Shown: positions 9,264-50,286, numbered from the stretch's first letter. The stretch: DNA of 64,000 nucleotides from Deltaproteobacteria bacterium (GCA_018657625.1 JABHWU010000124.1:15277-79276), one strand, 5' to 3'. Program-made: numbers and translations. Notes: generated from the sequence alone by a model not told the origin.

Positions 9264-9518
9264 TTATATATCCAGATAGGCCATATCGAAATTAGCGATT
9301 GGGATCTCTCCCTCTTGTGCTCGTTGAGTACCCTGATCAAGCTCAAAATCGCTGATAACGGCCTGATGCATTTCGACGGCTAAAGTTTTATCACACATTT
9401 TATAAGCTAAAGTCTTTCCCTGATTTAGCCTTAGTACATTATAGTTACTTCTATCTACTGTTGCTGTATTTTTGGTTTTAAATAAGTCTGCTAATAGTAA
9501 ATCTTTTATATCCTGCAT
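9264..9518 (-). CDS. hypothetical small protein (84 aa), coding status uncertain
   Basis: Only ORF of reasonable composition in a 650 bp intergenic gap. No recognisable motifs. Confidence 0.25.
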   Translation of the reverse strand: MQDIKDLLLADLFKTKNTATVDRSNYNVLRLNQGKTLAYKMCDKTLAVEMHQAVISDFELDQGTQRAQEGEIPIANFDMAYLDI

Positions 9519-9783
9519 TTCTCCCCTGTAAGTTAAAAATTCACTAAACTCTAATAGTATGACGTCATATCGTCAAGATTCATATTAGGATCAGTAAAAG
9601 GCAAGTCCAGTCGCCGTTTCAAGCTGATAAGAGTTTTTAGAACGTAAATAAATAACAAGTAATCTTATTAATGACCTTAATTTTCAAACGCTACTGACTT
9701 ATCAATAACACAAGAGATAAGCAGAGTCACGAAATAAATTTTGATTGTGTAAAAAAACTTTGACACAAATTGAAATTATTATT

Positions 9784-10248
9784 TTATTTTTTAGATTCTT
9801 TCCCGGTCATTTGATTGACAACAATTTTTACCAATGTCACACCATTTAATGCATTCTCTCCGTATTCAAACTGATTTTCAGAATACTGTTTCATAATCAG
9901 GTCCATACCTTTTATCTTTTCCTGCTTGTCTAAAACAATCTCCGCCTTTCCCGAAGCAATGATACTTTCATAAGTAGCACTCCAGTTACAAGCTTTCCCC
10001 TTAGGATCAGATACAATGCCAATTTCATCATCAATTTCAATACACACTAAGGGATTTTTTTGAATGATTTCCAGTTTCTTGCCCTCATTGGCACTATGAA
10101 AATAAAATACATGATTTAAATATCCAAAATTTAAAGGAATAATATAGGGTTGATTCCCATCGCATAATGCCAGTCGCATTACTTTTGCTTTTTTAATAAT
10201 GCTTTCTATCACTGACAGGTCTTTAATTTCTTTTTCATTTCTACGCAT
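9784..10248 (-). CDS. pyridoxamine 5'-phosphate oxidase-like FMN-binding family protein
   Basis: 154 aa with PNPOx-like split-barrel pattern (AKVMRLALCDGNQPYIIPLNFGY...VFYFHSANEGKK). Confidence 0.65.
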   Translation of the reverse strand: MRRNEKEIKDLSVIESIIKKAKVMRLALCDGNQPYIIPLNFGYLNHVFYFHSANEGKKLEIIQKNPLVCIEIDDEIGIVSDPKGKACNWSATYESIIASGKAEIVLDKQEKIKGMDLIMKQYSENQFEYGENALNGVTLVKIVVNQMTGKESKK

Positions 10249-10635: not shown

Positions 10636-11610
10636 TTAAGTATTGTAAATATCATTTAAATCAGTTTGATAGCGAACAGTTTTCCAGGAAGATTCATTGA
10701 CCTTTAATTGAAAAATATCTGGCCGGGCATAGTGACCGGTAACATCAAAATCCAATTTTGCTTTCGCAATCTGATTCAAATCCAACTCTGCCCGTAAAAT
10801 ACCTGCTTCATCAAAAAGAGGACCTGCCAGAACCTCTCCCTGGGGAGAAATAATCGCGCTGCCACCGCGACACATTTGTTCATCCATCTGCGATAACTCA
10901 TCAATCATTGGTAATTCTTCAGGGTACATCGATTTGGTGACATATTGATTACAACCCAAAACAAAACATCTCCCTTCACAGGCAATATGTTTAAGCGTTG
11001 CCTGCCAGTTATCTCTGGAGTCTGCTGTGGGGGCAAGATATATCTGAACTCCTTTCCCATAAATAGCCATTCTGGCCAATGGCATATAATTTTCCCAACA
11101 AATTAACCCACCCACTTTACCAAATTCTGTATTTACCACGGTTAATGTACTACCGTCGCCTTCACCCCAAATCAATCTTTCACTACCTGTTGGTTTTAAT
11201 TTCCGATGAATACCGGCAACTGTCCCTGTTTTATTGATGTATATTTGTGAACAATAGAGGGTATTTTCTGAAGTCTGATCTTTTTCAATAATCCCCACAC
11301 TTAGAAAAACACTATTTTGCCGGGCAATTTTACATAATTGTTTAACTTCATCGCTTTCCAGCGATATTGAATTTTCCCAATATTTTAACCAAAGTTCCCT
11401 TCCAATTTCCTTCCGATTGCCGACAACCATACCAAATCCTAACCCCCTAGGGTAAGCCGGTATAAATGCTTCCGGGAATAAAACCAGATCGGTATTCTGA
11501 CAAGCCGCTTTTTGGGTCAGATCCCCTATTTTTTCTATGGTTTGTGATAAGTGAAACAGTACGGGTGCATCCTGAACAACAGAAACATTAACCGGTGATA
11601 TTGGTTTCAA
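10636..11610 (-). CDS. nitrilase / carbon-nitrogen hydrolase family protein
   Basis: Catalytic triad context FPEAF (Glu), K in RKLKPT, CWENYMP (Cys), typical of nitrilase superfamily branch 1. Confidence 0.8.
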   Translation of the reverse strand: MKPISPVNVSVVQDAPVLFHLSQTIEKIGDLTQKAACQNTDLVLFPEAFIPAYPRGLGFGMVVGNRKEIGRELWLKYWENSISLESDEVKQLCKIARQNSVFLSVGIIEKDQTSENTLYCSQIYINKTGTVAGIHRKLKPTGSERLIWGEGDGSTLTVVNTEFGKVGGLICWENYMPLARMAIYGKGVQIYLAPTADSRDNWQATLKHIACEGRCFVLGCNQYVTKSMYPEELPMIDELSQMDEQMCRGGSAIISPQGEVLAGPLFDEAGILRAELDLNQIAKAKLDFDVTGHYARPDIFQLKVNESSWKTVRYQTDLNDIYNT

Positions 11611-11624
11611 AATAGCTCCTGATT

Positions 11625-12692
11625 TTAGTAATTTAACATTTCATCAATGATTATAAAAATTTGCTGATTGCCCTGATCCAAAGACTGTTGATTTATTTGT
11701 TGAATAATTTGATCTTTATTTTGAATAATTTCCTGAATTTTTTCAATAATGGAAATTTCAGAAAGACTCTCTTCTTCAACAACAACAGCCAGCCCTTGTT
11801 TAGCAAAGGACTTTGCATTCAGTATCTGATCCCCCCGGCTGGCTTTTTTAGAAAGCGGAATCAATAAGGATGGTTTTTTAACAGCCAGCAGTTCAAAAAG
11901 GATGGTAGCTCCGGCCCGGGATATTACCAGGTCCGCCATGGCGAAAAAATCCGGAAGCTCCTGATCAACATATTCAAATTGTCGGTAATCAACCCTATCC
12001 ATCAATGATTCGTCTAAACCATTCTGGCCACAAATATGGCAAATCGAAAATTCACTAGATAAAGTATCAATATTTTCCCGAATCAAATCGTTGATCACTT
12101 TTGAGCCTAAACTACCGCCAACAATTAGTAATACAGGTTTATCTGACTTAAAATTACAAATTTTCTTACCCTGGGAGGCATTGCCATTTTGAATCACAGA
12201 CCGAACGGGAATACCGGTATGGACAGCTTTCGACGAATTAATATATTTAATCGTTTCAGGAAAACTATAACAAATCTTTTTGGCAAAGGGTGCTGACAGA
12301 CGGTTGGTTAATCCGGGAGTCAGGTCAGATTCATGGATGATCACCGGAATTCGTAACAACCATGAGGCCCAAACCACCGGACAGGAGACAAAACCACCTT
12401 TGCTGAATACTACCCCGGGTTTAATTTTCAGCAATAGAAAAATCGATTTTAAAACTCCCAATACTATTTTAAAAACATCTGTAAAATTTTTGAAATCAAA
12501 ATACCGGCGAAGTTTACCTGCTGAAATATGATGATAGTAATCCACTACCCCTTCCACCAGTTTCTGCTCAATACCATTAATTTGCCCAATATAATGAACC
12601 TCCAACCCTTTCGATTTTAATTCAGGTATAATGGCCAAGTTTGGCGTGACATGACCAGCTGTTCCACCACCGGTCAGAACAATTCGTTTCAT
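11625..12692 (-). CDS. murG: undecaprenyldiphospho-muramoylpentapeptide beta-N-acetylglucosaminyltransferase
   Basis: N-terminal GGGTAGHVTP motif, GT28 fold length (355 aa), C-terminal nucleotide-sugar binding region. Confidence 0.85.
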   Translation of the reverse strand: MKRIVLTGGGTAGHVTPNLAIIPELKSKGLEVHYIGQINGIEQKLVEGVVDYYHHISAGKLRRYFDFKNFTDVFKIVLGVLKSIFLLLKIKPGVVFSKGGFVSCPVVWASWLLRIPVIIHESDLTPGLTNRLSAPFAKKICYSFPETIKYINSSKAVHTGIPVRSVIQNGNASQGKKICNFKSDKPVLLIVGGSLGSKVINDLIRENIDTLSSEFSICHICGQNGLDESLMDRVDYRQFEYVDQELPDFFAMADLVISRAGATILFELLAVKKPSLLIPLSKKASRGDQILNAKSFAKQGLAVVVEEESLSEISIIEKIQEIIQNKDQIIQQINQQSLDQGNQQIFIIIDEMLNY

Positions 12693-12698
12693 GTTTTT

Positions 12699-13529
12699 TT
12701 AATTTGCAGATGAATTTTTCAGCAGGTATTGCATTGCTGTTATATCAACACCATTTTGGTAATTAAATTTCATCGGACAAACGGCAACATGTTTCTTCTC
12801 TGCTAAAACATAAATATCTGAAGTATGAGAAAGTTGTTCTTTATCATAAACAATTCTCACCCGAATATCGCTGACTTTAGAATTCAAGGTCGGAGCGTCA
12901 AAATATGTTTCATAATAAGGTTGATCCGCAACTTCTGTAAATTCACACGCCGTCTTTTCATTTGCATCTGCAGGGACATCTATTTTTAATATATCGATAT
13001 CCTTCGGAAACCCTTGTGATAAAACCTGAATGGCAAACCGGTTTAAGAAATAAATGGAGGGCCGCCAGTCCTGCTTCGTATATTCGAAATGGCTGTCTGT
13101 TTTTGTTTGCTTCGAAACCGCTAGGGCAGGTGTACCCAGACTAGAAGCTTCAAAAGCAGCGCCTACTGTTCCTGATACACTAACATTTGACCCAATATTT
13201 TCACCGTAATTAATACCGGAAACAGCCAGATCAGGTAATTGGCCCTTAAACAGGATATTATAAGCCAGCTGAACAATTAAAGATGGTGAACAATCACAGG
13301 TATAGGCTTCAATTTTATTACCCTCAATATCATATGGCACAGGTTCAAGTTTAGCATCAGTAGCACCGACATGACTGCGGCTCATAGCAGTTTGCTGCCT
13401 CGAAGGGGCAGCCACCACGATACGTCCCAACCCCAAAACGCCCTGAATTGATGCCTTTAAGCCAGGGGAGTGGATACCATCATCGTTAGTTAAAAAAATA
13501 AGTGGTTTATTCATAAATTTTTTACTCAT
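12699..13529 (-). CDS. surE: 5'/3'-nucleotidase SurE
   Basis: Starts with LTNDDGIHSPGL, the SurE signature. 276 aa. Confidence 0.85.
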   Translation of the reverse strand: MSKKFMNKPLIFLTNDDGIHSPGLKASIQGVLGLGRIVVAAPSRQQTAMSRSHVGATDAKLEPVPYDIEGNKIEAYTCDCSPSLIVQLAYNILFKGQLPDLAVSGINYGENIGSNVSVSGTVGAAFEASSLGTPALAVSKQTKTDSHFEYTKQDWRPSIYFLNRFAIQVLSQGFPKDIDILKIDVPADANEKTACEFTEVADQPYYETYFDAPTLNSKVSDIRVRIVYDKEQLSHTSDIYVLAEKKHVAVCPMKFNYQNGVDITAMQYLLKNSSAN

Positions 13530-20507: not shown

Positions 20508-20515
20508 AAACCGCT

Positions 20516-20660
20516 ATTTAGTGTCTGAGCGAAAAGTAGATAATTTGGGGACATGTACAATTTGTAGAAAACACTTTAATAATTAAATACCAAGTTGTTA
20601 CGTGTACCCTAATTACCGGACTTATTTTCCAATAATTGAATTTTCGTTCAGCCACTATTT
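20516..20660 (+). mobile_element. MITE-like element, copy 1 (about 136 bp core, 17 bp TIRs)
   Basis: agtgtctgagcgaaaag...cttttcgttcagccact with internal second inverted repeat (aatttggggacatgtaca / gttacgtgtaccctaatt). Flanked by ATTT on both sides. Highly similar to copies at 35182, 39236, 44384 and 44524. Confidence 0.6.
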
Positions 20661-20751
20661 AAGATTTATCACCAACAGTGAATATTTCTAAAATACCAGT
20701 ATACTGTGACTGCTTAAGCGTTTTTAAAATCTAATTGATCAACCACTATCT

Positions 20752-28346: not shown

Positions 28347-29711
28347 TCATTTTCTTTTTCTTCTGAGATTGACTTGGGCATCGATAGGTGGATAAATAAA
28401 TTTCCAGTTTATTATCAGCTCTTTTTCAGGAAAGGCTTCCGGAAGTGACGGCCTTTCTAAAGAACCAATCAAAGCCTGAATAACACTCAATTCCATTTCT
28501 GCTGTCAGATTGGAGTCAAATACCTTATAACCAAGCAGTTTCCCTGTTTTTTGTAATCTGACCCGAACCCAAACGTTCCCCCCATCGGGAATTTTTCCCA
28601 GTCTGTAGTCAGTGGGTGCAGACCACCAACGGGAAAGATCAACTGCCCAGTTTTCCATATAACGTTCATAGGTCCATTTATAAGTATTCATGGAGAATTG
28701 AATGGTATCTTCATTGGTACGTTCCGGTTTTATCCCTCTAAAACTTTTTTTTATAATTTCAGGTGTTTCGTCAACAGGTTTTTTAGCATTTGGTGTTACC
28801 CGAAACAGTGGAGAAATACTGGCAACAATGGCCGCTTCTTGCTTCGATTCAACAATGGTTTCTGCTTCCGATTCAACAATCGTTTCTGCTTCCGGTTCAA
28901 CAATCGTTTCTGCTTCCGGTTCAACAATCGTTTCTGCTTCCGGTTCAACAATGGTTTCTGCTTCCGGTTCAACAATCGTTTCTGCTTCCGGTTCAACAAT
29001 GGTTTCTGGAATAGATGCAAAGTCACTCATTAGCTTTGAGGATTGTGGTTCAATGACTTGAACATTATCCAGCTCTGAAACCGGCTCCGATCCAATAACA
29101 TTGACAATACTCTTTTCCGGTTCTGGAGAAATAAGCGGAATCGGTTTTCGATCAGTCACCATCTCCTTTTCAACCTGAGAAGGATCATTTTCAGGGTTTA
29201 TGGTTTCCGGAATTTCTTCTTCGGTATCAATTATCTCATCCGGTTTATGCTCAGTTTCATTTACAGGTTTCTGATCCAAAGGTGCTTCCAGTAATTTTTC
29301 AAAAAACGCTTGATCCAATTTGGTTTCTTCGCCATCTTTTAGGCCTGCATCTTCTTTTTCCGGCAGGATAATTTCATCTTCAACAGCCGTTTCTGATAAG
29401 TTTTTAGTAAAATCCGGTAAATTCTGATACACTTTATCAACCTGATCGTCGCTGGGAGGAGGTTCTGCCATCACGGGATCCTCTACAGGTTCTTCTACAG
29501 GAACTTCTTTTTTCAACTCCGGCAGCTCATCCTCCAGTAATTGAATTTCAATACCCTCATCATAAATATTAGGAATGAAAACTTGATTCAACCACGAAGA
29601 AAGTGGTGAAATTATTGAGATGTGGAATAATAATGATATCGTGATTGCAAATAACAACCAGATTCGATCAGGAGCTACCATAAGTACCAAAAACGACTTT
29701 TTTAAATCCAT
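28347..29711 (-). CDS. tonB: TonB-family energy transducer with 7x octapeptide (ETIVEPEA) repeat linker
   Basis: N-terminal TM anchor, acidic/proline-rich linker with tandem ETIVEPEA repeats, C-terminal TonB_C-like domain. Directly downstream of exbB-exbD on the same strand. Confidence 0.7.
   Translation of the reverse strand: MDLKKSFLVLMVAPDRIWLLFAITISLLFHISIISPLSSWLNQVFIPNIYDEGIEIQLLEDELPELKKEVPVEEPVEDPVMAEPPPSDDQVDKVYQNLPDFTKNLSETAVEDEIILPEKEDAGLKDGEETKLDQAFFEKLLEAPLDQKPVNETEHKPDEIIDTEEEIPETINPENDPSQVEKEMVTDRKPIPLISPEPEKSIVNVIGSEPVSELDNVQVIEPQSSKLMSDFASIPETIVEPEAETIVEPEAETIVEPEAETIVEPEAETIVEPEAETIVESEAETIVESKQEAAIVASISPLFRVTPNAKKPVDETPEIIKKSFRGIKPERTNEDTIQFSMNTYKWTYERYMENWAVDLSRWWSAPTDYRLGKIPDGGNVWVRVRLQKTGKLLGYKVFDSNLTAEMELSVIQALIGSLERPSLPEAFPEKELIINWKFIYPPIDAQVNLRRKRK
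28848..29010. repeat. 24 bp tandem repeat, about 6.8 copies, in-frame within tonB
   Basis: Unit ttcaacaatcgtttctgcttccgg repeated head-to-tail with only cgtt/ggtt and ccgg/ccga variants. Produces spurious antisense ORFs in the six-frame track. Confidence 0.9.
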
Positions 29712-33179: not shown

Positions 33180-33270
33180 GTTAACAAACTTGTATTTTGT
33201 GCCTTTAAAATCAAAGTGTTATTAAGTGTCATCTCAACGAAGAATGAGGAGAGATCTTTTTTATCTCAAT
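33180..33270 (+). repeat. about 90 bp intergenic repeat, family 2, copy A
   Basis: gttaacaaactt...ctttaaaatcaaagtgttattaagtgtcatctcaacgaagaatgaggagagatcttttttatctcaa, about 80% identical to 49961-50048 in the same orientation. Confidence 0.45.
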
Positions 33271-33411
33271 TAAGGTTTTTAACTGGATTTTCATCTGTTT
33301 TGGAGTCACAAAATCTGTATTAATAAAAACTTTAATAACCATTATTCTTTTGGTCGATTAACCAGCGCCTTGAGGTAACTGATGGGAGAAAAGGGTCTAA
33401 CTGCTATTGTT

Positions 33412-34257: not shown

Positions 34258-35199
34258 CTATAAGGTAAAATAAAAAACTGCACCCTGACCAACAGCACCT
34301 TCAGCCCTAATCGTCCCACCGTGACGATGGATGATGCGTTGGACGGTTGCTAATCCGATGCCTGTACCTTCAAATTCTGATAGTGAGTGAAACCTTTGAA
34401 AAGCACCGAATAACTTATTTGCATAAGCCATATCAAAACCAGCACCATTATCTTTAATATAAAAAATGGGCTGCTCATTTTCAATGATCTTACTAAATTC
34501 AATCTTTGCTTTTTCGGTTTTACCGGTAAACTTCCAGGCATTTCCCAATAAATTGTCTAAGACAGCCTGGATTAAATTCGAATCAGCATTAACCCTGATC
34601 CCTGGAGTCACTTCTATCGCAACCTCCCTCTCACTATCCAGTTGTTTCAAATTCTCCAAAGTTGAAAGCACTAGTTTACTTAAATCAATATCTTTCCTGT
34701 TCATTTCACAACGTGTCATCCGTGACATTATTAACAGATCATCAATCAGGCTTCCCATTCGATGACAGCCACCCCGAACCCTGTTAATGTAATCTTTACC
34801 ATTATCATCCAGTTGATCGTGATAATCTTCCATCAGCGCTAAACTAAATCCGTCAATCCCGCGCAAGGGTGCCCGTAAATCATGTGAAACAGAATAGGCA
34901 AAAGAATCCAGTTCCTGATTGGCAGCTTCCAACTGAATCGTCCGTTCTTTAACTCTTTGTTCTAAACCGATATTCAATTCACGAACTTGTGGTTCAACTT
35001 GAACGCGTTCCTGTATTTCACTTTTAAGATCTTTGGTTCGGTCTACCACAAGTGAACTCATTCGTCTATTGAATAGAGTTAAAGCCATAATGGCAATGAA
35101 ACCGGTAACCAGAGAAGCAAACACAATTTGTCTATAATTATAAGTAGTGTCTGGCCGAGAATAACTTTGTTTGCTAATGATCCGGTAATCTGGGTACAC
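34258..35199 (-). CDS. sensor histidine kinase (single TM, HisKA+HATPase), N-terminus encoded within a MITE copy
   Basis: H-box FAYSVSHDLRAPLRGI, N box LGNAWKF, G boxes DNGAGFD and GTGIGLA. GTG start and first about 6 codons fall inside the MITE fragment 35182-35285. Confidence 0.7.
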   Translation of the reverse strand: MYPDYRIISKQSYSRPDTTYNYRQIVFASLVTGFIAIMALTLFNRRMSSLVVDRTKDLKSEIQERVQVEPQVRELNIGLEQRVKERTIQLEAANQELDSFAYSVSHDLRAPLRGIDGFSLALMEDYHDQLDDNGKDYINRVRGGCHRMGSLIDDLLIMSRMTRCEMNRKDIDLSKLVLSTLENLKQLDSEREVAIEVTPGIRVNADSNLIQAVLDNLLGNAWKFTGKTEKAKIEFSKIIENEQPIFYIKDNGAGFDMAYANKLFGAFQRFHSLSEFEGTGIGLATVQRIIHRHGGTIRAEGAVGQGAVFYFTL

Positions 35200-35285
35200 G
35201 TAACAATCTGGTATCTAAAAGATTGAACCTTTACTAAAAAGTGTACATGTCCCCAAATTACCTACTTTTCGTTCAGACACTAAGT
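35182..35285 (-). mobile_element. MITE-like element, copy 2 (5'-truncated, about 104 bp)
   Basis: Retains inner repeat and one terminal repeat (ccggtaatctgggtacacgtaaca...tgtacatgtccccaaattacctacttttcgttcagacactaagt). The other 17 bp terminus is absent. Confidence 0.55.
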
Positions 35286-35464
35286 ATGAACGGCATCGAA
35301 GGATTTTCAAAAATATTGGTCCACCGAATATAACGCGAATGAAATACCAAAAAACAAGAACTGATAAAAAATTAAATGTCACTATTCTGATTGCTTCGAT
35401 TTTAACAAAGGTTCATAGTATTTTATAAAGTCAAACACCTAAATTTACCCACTAAAACCAAATA

Positions 35465-36787
35465 ATGAACAAGTTATTACTCAATCCCAACTTTCCTTTT
35501 AAACCCAAAAAATTTCCTTTTTTTTATGGCTGGATGATCGCACTCCTTGCGACAATAGGCATGATTTCCAGCATCCCCGGCCAAACGATGGGTGTTGGGG
35601 TGTTTACTGAATATCTGATCAAAAAAACAGGATTGAATCGATTGGAAATCAGTCTGGCCTATATGACTGGAACCATAATCAGCAGCCTGATTGTACCTTT
35701 TGCCGGAAGAGTCCTTGACAAGCTGGGTGCAAGGACAATGGTTATTATCGCAGGTCTGGGGTTAAGTCTGGCTTTACTTTTACTGGCAGGTTTTGGAGAG
35801 TGGAATCAATCAATGCTTGGTTTTATTCCCTGGTTCTCTGTCACGGTAAAAGCAACTGTTATCATGATTTTTATTTTTTTATTGCTTAGACAGTTCGGAC
35901 AGGGAATCATGACCATGACTAGTCGAAATATGTTATCAAAATGGTTTGAAACCAGAAGAGGTTTAGTTGGTGGTATCAGTGGTGTTGCTGTTTCGTTTGG
36001 TTTCTCAATTGCTCCCCAGGTCATGAATGACTTAATTCGTCATTTTGATTATATTCAGACCATCCTCATTATGGCACTGACTTGCGGTTTAGGTACTGCG
36101 ATCCTTGGTTGGTTATTCTTCAGGGATAATCCCGAAGAGTGTGGGCTTTTAATGGATAATGGGTCTATCACCGGAAGAAAGGTTAACCCGGAACAATCTA
36201 CCAGAGCGGTCACTTTAGTTGAAGCCAGAAAAACATATGACTTCTGGATTTTTTGTCTGGGAATGTGTTCATCTTCCTTTATCATTACCGGATTTACATT
36301 CCATATCAGTTCCATTGGAAAAATCGCTGGATTGAGTAGAGATCAATCCTTTGAAATATTCCTACCCATAGCGATTATTAGCGTTATAACCCATTTTATT
36401 GGCGGCTGGATTAGCGACAGAGTACCCTTAAAATACTTATTAATGTTACAGGTTTTGAACCTGGGAATTGGTTCAATGGCCTTAATGGAGTTTCAAAACA
36501 TCTGGTATCAATATCTTGTAATCGCTTGTTTTGGAATTCAAAGTGGGCTATGGGCCGTTTTGTCAATGGTAACCTGGCCCCGTTTTTTTGGAAGAACGCA
36601 TCTGGGTGCCATCGCTGGTTTAGCCATGGGGTGTCAGGTTTTTGCCAGTGCCATTGGCCCCCCCGTTTTCGGAGCCTCTCAAAGTTGGACGGGAGACTAT
36701 AACACCGCTGCCTGGATCGCCGGGATCTTAAATTTACTTTTATTTATAGGAGCAACAAAAGCCAAGGTATATTACAAGAAAAAATGA
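35465..36787 (+). CDS. MFS transporter
   Basis: 440 aa, 12 predicted TM, MFS-type loop motifs (GRVLDKLGARTM). Confidence 0.8.
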   Translation: MNKLLLNPNFPFKPKKFPFFYGWMIALLATIGMISSIPGQTMGVGVFTEYLIKKTGLNRLEISLAYMTGTIISSLIVPFAGRVLDKLGARTMVIIAGLGLSLALLLLAGFGEWNQSMLGFIPWFSVTVKATVIMIFIFLLLRQFGQGIMTMTSRNMLSKWFETRRGLVGGISGVAVSFGFSIAPQVMNDLIRHFDYIQTILIMALTCGLGTAILGWLFFRDNPEECGLLMDNGSITGRKVNPEQSTRAVTLVEARKTYDFWIFCLGMCSSSFIITGFTFHISSIGKIAGLSRDQSFEIFLPIAIISVITHFIGGWISDRVPLKYLLMLQVLNLGIGSMALMEFQNIWYQYLVIACFGIQSGLWAVLSMVTWPRFFGRTHLGAIAGLAMGCQVFASAIGPPVFGASQSWTGDYNTAAWIAGILNLLLFIGATKAKVYYKKK

Positions 36788-37384: not shown

Positions 37385-38179
37385 ATGATCCGAAAGTTTT
37401 ATTATTTGATGTCTTTTTTTATATTCTTCATTCTTCCATTCAGTTCTGAGATATCTTTGGCCGATTTTATGGAAATAGAACTCATTTATATTAAGGGAGG
37501 TTGTTATCAAATGGGAGATACATTTGGTGATGGAGAGTATGATGAAACCCCACTCCATAAAGTCTGTGTCAAAGACTTTTATCTGGGTAAGTATGAAATT
37601 ACCCAGGGACAATGGACCAAAATAATGGGTAACAATCCTTCAGCTTTTCCAAGTGGCAATTCCCATCCTGTAGAGTGGGTCAGCTGGAATGATACACAAC
37701 AGTTTTTGAAAACCATTAATCGGGTTACAGGAGAGACATACCGTTTACCGACAGAGGCAGAATGGGAGTTTGCTTGTAGAGCCCGGGGTCAAAATATTAA
37801 ATTTGGTACTCAAACCGGTAATCTAACCCCGCATCTGGCTAACTACGGATCTGAAAAATTTGGAGAGGGTAGTGCATTGGATGGCTTTGAATTTACATCC
37901 CCTGTGGGTAGTTACCCGCCCAATCAGCTAGGTCTATATGATATGTCAGGTAATGTTTGGGAATGGGTGAGTGACTGGAAAGAAATCAATGATAATTACT
38001 ACCAGCGCAGTCCTGAAGAAAATCCACAAGGTGCTGAAAAGACCAGGCGCAAGGTCGGACGTGGCGGATCCTGGAATTTTAGTTCTAGGGCACTACGTTG
38101 TTCCAATCGTTTTAGTAACTGGATCCAAGCGAACTGTTTAAGTTATGGTTTTAGAATAGCCAAGGACGTCATCCAATAG
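37385..38179 (+). CDS. formylglycine-generating enzyme (FGE-sulfatase/SUMF1) family protein, secreted
   Basis: Signal peptide, then GKYEITQGQWTKIMG, WVSWND, RLPTEAEWEFACRA, GNVWEWVSDW, RGGSW...RCSNR, hallmark FGE-sulfatase domain motifs. Confidence 0.8.
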   Translation: MIRKFYYLMSFFIFFILPFSSEISLADFMEIELIYIKGGCYQMGDTFGDGEYDETPLHKVCVKDFYLGKYEITQGQWTKIMGNNPSAFPSGNSHPVEWVSWNDTQQFLKTINRVTGETYRLPTEAEWEFACRARGQNIKFGTQTGNLTPHLANYGSEKFGEGSALDGFEFTSPVGSYPPNQLGLYDMSGNVWEWVSDWKEINDNYYQRSPEENPQGAEKTRRKVGRGGSWNFSSRALRCSNRFSNWIQANCLSYGFRIAKDVIQ

Positions 38180-39139: not shown

Positions 39140-39235
39140 TTTTGTCAGTTAAAAAATTTAGATTAAAATAATGATTCAATTTCCCAGTATTCTCAATTTT
39201 ATATTATAGACTACTTTCATTCAATACTAAAAATT

Positions 39236-39379
39236 AAGTAGTGGCTGAACGAAAATTCAATTATTGAATATTAGTCCGGTAATTAGGGTACACGTAACAA
39301 CTTGGTATTTAATTATTAAAGTGTTTTCTACAAATTGTACATGTCCCCAAATTACCTATTTTTCGTTCAGACACTAAGT
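39236..39379 (-). mobile_element. MITE-like element, copy 3 (inverted orientation)
   Basis: agtggctgaacgaaaat...ttttcgttcagacact with AAGT on both flanks. Collinear with copy 1 as reverse complement. Confidence 0.6.
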
Positions 39380-39385
39380 AGGAAA

Positions 39386-44158: not shown

Positions 44159-44383
44159 TCTGATTTGTTTAAGTAATTTTATTTTTAAATGACTGAGTTA
44201 TATTTAAAACCTGAATTCTCTTTATACCCTTAGTTAGAAATTCAAGCAAGCCTTGTCAATGAGGTTAATGAACACTGATCACAGTAAATCCAATAATAGC
44301 TAATAGACAAAAGGCGTCCAAGTGGATCTTCAAACAATATTTGGCACTTACTTAAAATATTCTATAAAGAATTAAGTACTTGT

Positions 44384-44527
44384 ATTTAGTGTCTGAACGA
44401 AAAGTAGGTAATTTGGGGACATGTACAATTTGTAGAAAACACTTTATTAATTAAATACCAAGTTGTTACGTGTACCCTATTTACCGGACTTATATCCAAT
44501 AATTGAATTTTCGTTCAGCCACTATTT
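44384..44527 (+). mobile_element. MITE-like element, copy 4
   Basis: Full 136 bp element agtgtctgaacgaaaag...ttttcgttcagccact flanked by ATTT. Shares its right ATTT with copy 5. Confidence 0.6.
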
Positions 44528-44667
44528 AGTGTCTGAACGAAAAGTAGGTAATTTGGGGACATGTACAATTTTTAGCAAAGGCTTAAACAATTAAATACCT
44601 GATAGTTACGTGTCCCCCAATTACCGGTTTGATATCCAATAATGACATTTTCGTTCGAACACTATTT
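44524..44667 (+). mobile_element. MITE-like element, copy 5 (tandem to copy 4, more diverged centre)
   Basis: agtgtctgaacgaaaag...ttttcgttcgaacact, ATTT flanks. Central region differs (tttttagcaaaggcttaaacaa). Confidence 0.6.
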
Positions 44668-45233
44668 AAATGATTTCAAAATAGTTTTAATAGATTTAAA
44701 GTCAATAAAATAATTATAAATGAAATTTATAACATTATTATATTATTCTTTAAGGCTTATTATGGAGGAAGATTCAAAAAATTCTCAATAAACAAATGTC
44801 GGATTTGATTCTTTTTTATTGGCCGAGGTTAAATTTAGTAGTTTTAATAGATTGATATATTTGTCTTAATTCAACTGAGTTTAGGTAAATAAAATTTTTA
44901 TAATAATATTAATAAAATCATCCATAGAAAAATTTTTGTACAGTAGTCATTTTTGCCAGGCAACAACTTGCATTAAAATAAATTTTACTTAACTTTTAGT
45001 TGTACTTATCATACTTATTTTGCTAATTATTATGTTCATGTAAAATTTAGACAGCCATTTTATAGGGAGTTAGCCCGTTTTTTATTTTTTAAAAACACAA
45101 TTATAACATTGTTTTATTAACAGAAAACCTATTAAATGATTTTGAAGGATTTTGCATATTAAGTATGGTGTACAACGATTTGTTACGATTAGCGGGTGAA
45201 ACTATCACCTGCCTGAAATTTTTTTTGGAAGAA

Positions 45234-49960: not shown

Positions 49961-50048
49961 GTTAACGAACTTTAGTATTATAGCTTTAAAATCAAAGTAT
50001 TATCAAATGTCATCACGATGAAGAATGCGGAGAGATTTTTTGTCTCAA
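49961..50048 (+). repeat. about 90 bp intergenic repeat, family 2, copy B
   Basis: gttaacgaactt...gctttaaaatcaaagtattatcaaatgtcatcacgatgaagaatgcggagagattttttgtctcaa. Aligns base-for-base with 33180-33270. Confidence 0.45.
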
Positions 50049-50286
50049 AATAATGGTAGCCGTTTAGGTGGAATGTCTGGTGAGGTAAAACAATTTGTCA
50101 GGAAATTGTTTTTGGAAATGATACAAAATCTATGGAGCATAATAGATTTCATGCTCCATAAAAAAATTTTATAACTTGCCTGATTTATCAAGGCAATAAA
50201 CAGCGCCCTTATAAGACACCACAATCACTACCAGATATGAAATCAGTAAAACACTTGTTATCATACTATCTCCTTTTTAAACTTGA

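Follow-up and report, generated by a model that had tools for sequence, protein, structure and literature searches.

A histidine kinase frame that opens inside a MITE: probable remnant of a decaying three-gene signalling module in an uncultured deltaproteobacterium

How does an open reading frame for a histidine kinase come to begin within a dispersed repeat, and does the start codon found there belong to a new gene or to the debris of an old one? The question is raised by a frame of 313 codons in the window analysed here (by which we mean the whole stretch of 64,000 nucleotides), whose first codon is a GTG at 35199-35197, whose stop lies at 34258, and whose product matches the Pfam families HisKA (residues 98-161) and HATPase_c (residues 206-313) and nothing else; one source labels the protein a "bacteriophytochrome"-type kinase. 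A sequence-only reading had described a truncated MITE copy that supplied the start and the first six codons of this kinase, and had considered it either a pseudogene or a neo-start driven by the element. The comparison with a syntenic relative suggests, with a probability that we put at about 0.75, that the frame is what is left of a sensor histidine kinase belonging to a three-gene module that is being lost, and that it is a recent pseudogene extended by chance into the MITE. The features on which the argument rests are collected in Table 1.

Table 1. Features of the kinase locus and MITE copies, in window coordinates
Feature	Position	Strand	Description
Kinase frame, 313 aa	34258..35199	-	About 25-28 non-native codons, then TM2, coiled coil, HisKA and HATPase_c, corresponding to orthologue residues ~228-516
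GTG opening the frame mechanically	35197..35199	-	In the right arm of the MITE; base-paired in the predicted hairpin
Complete MITE, 146 nt	35141..35286	-	Left TACTTA 35286-35281; core GTGTCTGAACG...GGCCAGACAC 35280-35147; right TACTTA 35146-35141
Ancestral intergenic remnant TAATTATAGACAAAT	35126..35140	-	Between MITE and deletion junction; translated within the frame
Deletion junction	35117..35126	-	Placed within ~10 nt; joins L007 ~9826-9836 to ~10682-10692; from blastn, local alignments and reading
Intergenic DNA from MITE to divergent MFS gene (35465-36787, +)	35287..35464	.	Partly matches L007; the 35 nt beside the MITE align weakly
Receiver remnant, 62 aa	34057..34245	-	246-nt in-frame deletion, junction 34209/34208; orthologue 144 aa
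Hybrid receiver-kinase remnant, 210 aa	33412..34044	-	568-nt frameshifting deletion, junction in 33472-33464; orthologue 402 aa
MITE copy	20515..20661	+	Alignment, nhmmer
MITE copy	39235..39380	-	Alignment; intergenic region 156 nt shorter at this place in the relative
Tandem pair of MITE copies	44383..44668 (44383-44528 and 44523-44668)	+	Alignment, nhmmer

The MITE family and its copy beside the kinase

A 40-nt probe taken from 35241-35280, with up to 3 mismatches allowed, matched five places in the window where none was expected by chance, which bears out the placing of the kinase GTG in a MITE-related repeat, and repeat finding combined with alignment delimited five copies of about 146 nt each. 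Outside the window, the invariant 19-nt core of the family was found in 114 stretches from public metagenomes, and a profile search (nhmmer) of these loci returned 194 matches, 99 of them full length. The 6-mers beside the core (consensus TAnTTA) are identical on the left and on the right in 30 of 40 non-redundant full-length copies, compared with 24.5% for unrelated pairs, and are therefore read as a target-site duplication. The element carries terminal inverted repeats (GTGTCTGAACGAAAA and TTCTCGGCCAGACAC), its inner arms pair, and a 55-aa ORF that overlaps it has no Pfam match. The features by which bacterial MITEs are recognized are thus present, namely inverted termini with a hairpin, a target-site duplication, many near-identical copies and an empty site in a relative. 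An autonomous parent IS was not found in about 1 Mb of MITE-bearing loci; pairs of the terminal repeats 0.5-3.5 kb apart do exist in these loci, and neither of the two inspected contains a transposase, only ordinary genes. No Rfam family matched in the window, and the MITE family is absent from the sources searched, in which one named genome gave a chance match to the 19-mer only.

Some further observations concern the repeats of this region. That sole match to the core among species-representative genomes (L010 2440-2720, Deltaproteobacteria bacterium tcs-42) lies beside a repeat resembling the palindrome GGGAC(A/T)GTCCCC. The two members of the pair at 44383-44668 (+) are of different sub-types, arranged head to tail with one TATTTA in common, and similar pairs occur in L061 (12903-13187). 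At 39235-39380, comparison with positions 5900-5945 of L007, the contig of the relative described below, gave no clean 6-bp duplication, and the window has 12 extra nucleotides (CCTACTTAATTT) resembling the neighbouring CTAATTAATTT; since this site could not be cleanly reconstructed in L007, the duplication may not be exactly 6 nt long. The window also contains a second family of dispersed repeats, each about 95 nt in length, with copies at 33180-33276 and 49961-50057, and at least 10 more (83-91% identity) occur in the MITE-bearing metagenome contigs. One member of this family closely follows the hybrid-kinase remnant, at a place taken up in L007 by about 650 nt of different sequence.

The copy beside the kinase aligns over all 146 nt with the other window copies at 77-79% identity and matches positions 1-146 of the nhmmer model. 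The identical 6-mer TACTTA flanks it on both sides, and its right arm (..AGCAAACAAAGTTATTCTCGGCCAGACAC) recurs in four non-redundant metagenome copies (two in L061, one each in L019 and L012) that are 95.5-98.5% identical to it. It differs from the other window copies by this right arm, which is specific to its sub-family. The similarity noticed by the sequence-only reading was limited to 35182-35285, and its conclusion that the element is truncated and lacks its second terminus does not hold against the full-length alignment, the right arms of the siblings and the TACTTA on both sides; the same 146-nt alignment answers the doubt whether the upstream similarity to the MITE might fall below chance when properly aligned. 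Likewise, the element contributes far more than six codons to the frame, since the two overlap by 59 nt, or 19.7 codons. The 98.5% identity with its closest sibling indicates that the copy is young. It is predicted to fold as a long hairpin (-51.7 kcal/mol, z = -2.6) in which the GTG pairs with the left arm.

The intact module of a relative and the losses in the window

The closest relative of the kinase, P0002, is a protein of 516 aa that shares 82% identity over 297 residues as well as conserved synteny, and about 50 further homologues (55-67% identity) are about 515 aa long. In P0002 and in all of these homologues, HisKA and HATPase_c are preceded by a first transmembrane segment and by PF11845 (Tll0287-like, formerly DUF3365); the layout in P0002 is TM1 at ~11-44, PF11845 at 44-218 with the c-heme motif CMVCH at 178, and TM2 at 222-247. 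The window protein aligns from orthologue residue ~228 onward only, it has no match to PF11845 and no CXXCH, and its single hydrophobic TM-like segment in a hydropathy scan covers residues 22-44, in agreement with the earlier description of a kinase with one TM and no sensor domain. A 2026 preprint assigns the DUF3365/Tll0287-like domain to the periplasmic Cache domains, with a c-type heme attached covalently, and attributes nitric-oxide-sensor-like properties to one member fused to signalling modules (PMC12889525). The orthologues have exactly the architecture of such sCache_heme histidine kinases, CXXCH included, whereas the window gene has lost the sensor domain and TM1 (PMC12889525); it is orthologous in the transmitter half and is without the periplasmic domain, the CXXCH and the two TM segments that define a Tll0287-like sensor.

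P0002 is encoded on L007, a contig of 38.8 kb with the same 19 flanking genes in the same order (FtsY ... MFS, module, ATP-grasp, ExbB, ExbD ...), and the module is intact there, with the 516-aa kinase, a 144-aa receiver and a 402-aa receiver-HisKA-HATPase hybrid. No MITE copy was found in 21.5 kb of L007 synteny, an interval in which the window has three MITE sites. Both comparisons that the sequence-only reading had proposed, with full-length orthologues and with a locus free of the MITE, therefore agree with its view that the 5' part of the gene was lost: the orthologue in the MITE-free relative does not share the short N-terminus, and about 227 codons and the native start are missing from the window.

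Other differences were noted among the lineages. In a third one (P0122, whose ATP-grasp protein is 89% identical), other genes stand in place of the module, which is consistent with the module being dispensable. A gene of the FGE-sulfatase family at window 37385-38179 (+) encodes 264 aa, compared with 192 aa in L007 (6965-7543). The 454-aa ORF that follows ExbB and ExbD (28347-29711, -), possibly TonB-like, contains a 24-nt tandem repeat (28809-29032) encoding ETIVEPEA about seven times, and its length is 454, 460 or 494 aa among strains and 418 aa in L007. The ATP-grasp neighbour shows 100% identity to a protein recorded at NCBI under "MAG: Deltaproteobacteria bacterium", its closest named relatives are from Desulforhopalus and Desulfopila, and G+C varies between about 28 and 44% over the 30-40 kb region (500-nt windows).

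Four collinear blastn blocks relate the window to L007: 35600-35322 to 9339-9616 (87%), 35118-34209 to 10691-11600, 34208-33464 to 11847-12592, and 33472-33399 to 13152-13225. Upstream of and within the kinase, the window lacks about 855 nt that are present in L007, comprising about 174 nt of upstream DNA and about 227 codons with the native start, TM1 and the whole heme sensor. A junction at the terminus of the MITE itself, as the end of a blastn block and a forced global alignment had indicated, was overturned by local alignment of the 15 nt that follow the element: ATAATTATAGACAAAT, which includes the last A of TACTTA, matches L007 9811-9826 at 15 of 16 positions, a score reached in none of 500 shuffles. 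This stretch of L007 is intergenic, about 175-190 nt upstream of the ATG of the intact kinase at 10001. Coding homology resumes only at ~35125-35117 (L007 ~10682-10692), which places the junction 15-24 nt downstream of the MITE, and on the other side of the element the left flank bears a weak similarity, judged by eye, to L007 ~9792-9810. The orthology between the 15 nt that follow the MITE and intergenic sequence of the relative means that the MITE is best taken as a simple upstream insertion and not as the breakpoint. The idea that a deletion fused the kinase directly to element sequence is not supported: the MITE is complete and flanked by its duplication, and old intergenic DNA lies between it and the junction. 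Read from 5' to 3', the frame opens with 19.7 codons of MITE sequence, continues through about 5-8 codons of old intergenic DNA and then enters the kinase within TM2.

The upstream region of L007 contains a single sigma-70-like match (TAGACA-18-TATAGT, 9818-9847), whose agreement with the consensus is not above chance; its -35 hexamer is kept in the window (35134-35129) and its -10 hexamer is deleted. A tblastn search for the lost 232 N-terminal residues, covering the window and 1 Mb of MITE-bearing loci, located them only in contigs of the relative, and we accordingly discarded a MITE-mediated inversion or translocation of the N-terminus.

The two partner genes are damaged as well. The 62-aa receiver keeps the first 12 and the last 50 residues of its orthologue, the middle of the domain with the phospho-acceptor region being gone, and its Pfam match covers profile positions 76-111 only, so that the kinase is not accompanied by the intact phospho-acceptor receiver of a functional two-component module. 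In the hybrid kinase, the 568-nt deletion removes most of HisKA and all of HATPase_c, and it falls at a 9-nt imperfect direct repeat (AAAATTCGG / AAAATATGG in L007). No MITE is present at the junction of either deletion. The whole three-gene module is decaying, each gene with a deletion of its own. Mira, Ochman and Moran reportedly described in 2001 the decay of bacterial pseudogenes by deletional bias, and the locus resembles it in showing several deletions of 10^2-10^3 bp within a single dispensable module whose flanking genes have kept their collinearity; it departs from it in that the remnants show sizeable deletions only and no small frameshifts or stops yet.

The start codon, the remnant and the competing explanations

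The arrangement might owe its existence to the assembler, the MITE-kinase junction being a chimera produced by walking through the repeat. Three contigs give some colour to this, because they attach different upstream DNA exactly at or inside the MITE: in L003 and L004 (2,755 nt each) a DUF554 gene lies upstream of the same MITE and kinase (1-953), and L129 has a third upstream sequence (1-470), with the switch inside the first ~45 nt of the element. However, five listed contigs, which come from five samples and measure 16-145 kb, have the order MFS gene, MITE, kinase remnant, and for four of them the DNA itself confirms it. The truncated arrangement of 313, 62 and 210 aa is present in seven listed contigs from seven samples, six of them represented by DNA; contigs as long as 67 kb and 145 kb are among the seven, and those nucleotide sequences that were compared are identical. 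Moreover, the deletion junction lies in unique sequence, outside the repeat. The aberrant contigs are short and of low coverage, their break is at or inside the repeat, and the DUF554 flank is found in L061 beside a MITE copy of its own, 98.5% identical; on these grounds we rejected their contexts as real MITE-mediated rearrangements and regard L003, L004 and L129 as probably assembly chimeras that pass through near-identical repeat copies. For the window itself, an artefact of this kind is hardly credible.

Little about the GTG recommends it as a place of initiation. It is the sole non-ATG start among 20 genes checked, all the others being ATG. No Shine-Dalgarno-like sequence was found upstream of any of the 20, whose upstream regions are A/T-rich, and the absence of one before the GTG is uninformative in a genome that makes no use of them; such an absence is unusual in a Desulfobulbales-like bacterium. 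With a local stop-codon density of 6%, 25 codons stay open by chance about 21% of the time. In all 24 of the other MITE copies tested (24/24), the GTG frame closes within 9-31 codons, and in the sibling copies it stops right at the target duplication, which indicates that the MITE has no built-in leader. Near the MITE, promoter-like matches are no commoner than in shuffled sequence (2 found, 2.2 expected).

The remnant proper shows no internal stops or frameshifts, and its H, N, G1, F and G2 boxes are all intact. Its dN/dS against L007 is 0.139, compared with 0.03-0.19 for the neighbours, both dN and dS being the highest in the region, and a relative-rate test with seven outgroup homologues counted 6 derived changes on the window branch and 7 on the L007 branch. 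As in a pseudogene, the native start and an essential domain are missing, but there are no stops or frameshifts and no sign of relaxed selection. The lack of stops, frameshifts and excess substitutions would point to a recent decay, but the dN/dS and relative-rate results carry no decay signal and cannot separate a recent pseudogene from a constrained gene: the sequences are compatible both with recent lesions and with a remnant still under constraint.

On another view, signals within or close to the MITE would drive expression of the kinase, from the GTG at 35199 or an internal start, as a sensor-less, membrane-anchored and constitutively active enzyme. A frame open over 313 codons with every catalytic motif intact, the lack of a substitution excess on the window branch and the fixation of the arrangement in all sampled populations would agree with it, a weak sigma-70-like match (TTGAAA-16-CATACT) ends at the edge of the MITE, and repeat-borne starts are known, for instance with REP2 of Neisseria (PMC3184786). 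Yet promoter-like matches of this kind occur no more often than in shuffled sequence, the GTG is sequestered in the hairpin and is the only non-ATG start among the genes checked, 24 other copies have this frame closed, deletions have destroyed both of the linked partners, and an intact remnant is equally expected from a recent loss. We therefore consider expression from the element to be very unlikely. A special form of it, in which the insertion would have rescued the beheaded kinase, with initiation at the MITE GTG or at GTG26 at the junction and a single-TM, sensor-less kinase kept by selection and rewired to another regulator, appears highly improbable on the same sequences; if it were true, the locus would exemplify how a new gene start arises from a MITE, here in an uncultured sulfate-reducer-like bacterium. 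Between the two possibilities of the sequence-only reading, then, the pseudogene is favoured by the breakage of both partners and by the closed frame in 24 of 24 copies, and the neo-start has found no support.

It may also be asked whether the MITE brought the truncation about, by recombination between two copies or a transposase-made adjacent deletion, by hairpin-stimulated slippage deletion or, as the chief route within this explanation, by inserting first, separating the operon from its promoter and thereby setting off the decay. The end of the element is only 15-24 nt from the junction, a closeness that may not be coincidence, the MITE-free relative has the intact module, the MITE sits upstream of the only sigma-70-like match of the relative's upstream region, and the family is young and abundant. 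Against these points, 15 nt of orthologous intergenic DNA separate the end of the element from the junction. TACTTA on both sides denotes a simple insertion: a recombinant of two copies would rarely match, TACTTA making up only 10% of the right flanks in the family, and an adjacent deletion would remove one of the duplications. By our estimate, an insertion somewhere in the leftover spacer of ~195 nt would fall within 24 nt of the junction with a chance of about 0.2, and neither of the other two deletions has a MITE at its junction. A causal role of the element seems to us unlikely.

The preferred reading, that of a decaying module, can be put together as follows. As the comparison shows, the ancestral module consisted of a 516-aa kinase (TM1, Tll0287-like c-heme sensor, TM2, HisKA, HATPase_c), a 144-aa receiver and a 402-aa hybrid. 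A deletion of ~855 nt took the native start of the kinase together with ~174 nt upstream, TM1 and the heme sensor, while a 246-nt deletion gutted the receiver and a frameshifting one of 568 nt took the catalytic half of the hybrid kinase. Before or after the kinase deletion, a complete 146-nt MITE transposed, with duplication of TACTTA, into intergenic DNA upstream of the kinase, at a site 15-24 nt from the deletion junction. Presumably no stop happened to lie in the right arm of this MITE, in the duplication or in the 15 nt of old intergenic DNA, and with no stop from the right arm to the kinase the frame is open back to the GTG of the MITE, which ORF finders call as the start. The use of this GTG as start codon is most likely an accident of gene decay and not the start of a new gene. 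With no sensing domain, with both linked partners broken and with a candidate start enclosed in a hairpin, the remnant is most likely not a working sensor. A counterpoint to the pseudogene reading is that the remnant bears no positive sign of decay, and autophosphorylation and cross-talk with another regulator would in principle still be open to a kinase that has one TM and no sensor.

Comparison with known repeat elements and significance

Frames of repeat elements fused to chromosomal ORFs are well documented, as in the MITE-ORF fusions of Anabaena, the palindromic elements of Rickettsia and enterobacterial repeats, and the review that describes them asks whether such fusions are real genes or products of annotation (Delihas, 2011; PMC3184786). 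The present case resembles them in that a short, hairpin-forming dispersed repeat adds codons to an annotated ORF (PMC3184786). It differs in that the partner is demonstrably what a deletion left of a larger gene, that the frame crosses 15 nt of former intergenic DNA, and that it is closed in 24 other copies. As with the repeat-borne starts of Neisseria REP2 (PMC3184786), the repeat provides the start codon of a downstream ORF; unlike REP2, with its promoter, its ribosome-binding site and its recurrent start before many genes, the MITE has no promoter match above chance, no ribosome-binding site was found in it, its GTG lies in a hairpin, and no recurrent association of start and gene was seen. 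With its length of about 146 nt, inverted termini, AT-rich target duplication, near-identical copies and empty sites, the family is like classical MITEs such as Nezha of Anabaena/Nostoc (PMC3184786), from which it is set apart by being undescribed in the sources searched and by the lack of an autonomous parent in the DNA searched.

Annotations should mark the ORFs of 313, 62 and 210 aa as what is left of a single decaying module and should not count them as signalling genes. The MITE family appears to be young, abundant and hitherto undescribed, in a marine, uncultured Desulfobulbales-like lineage, and because it causes mis-joins in metagenome assemblies, MAGs of this lineage call for caution. 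Nothing at the locus requires a new mechanism; it offers a clean, datable example of how a signalling module is lost by several mid-sized deletions before point-mutational decay sets in.
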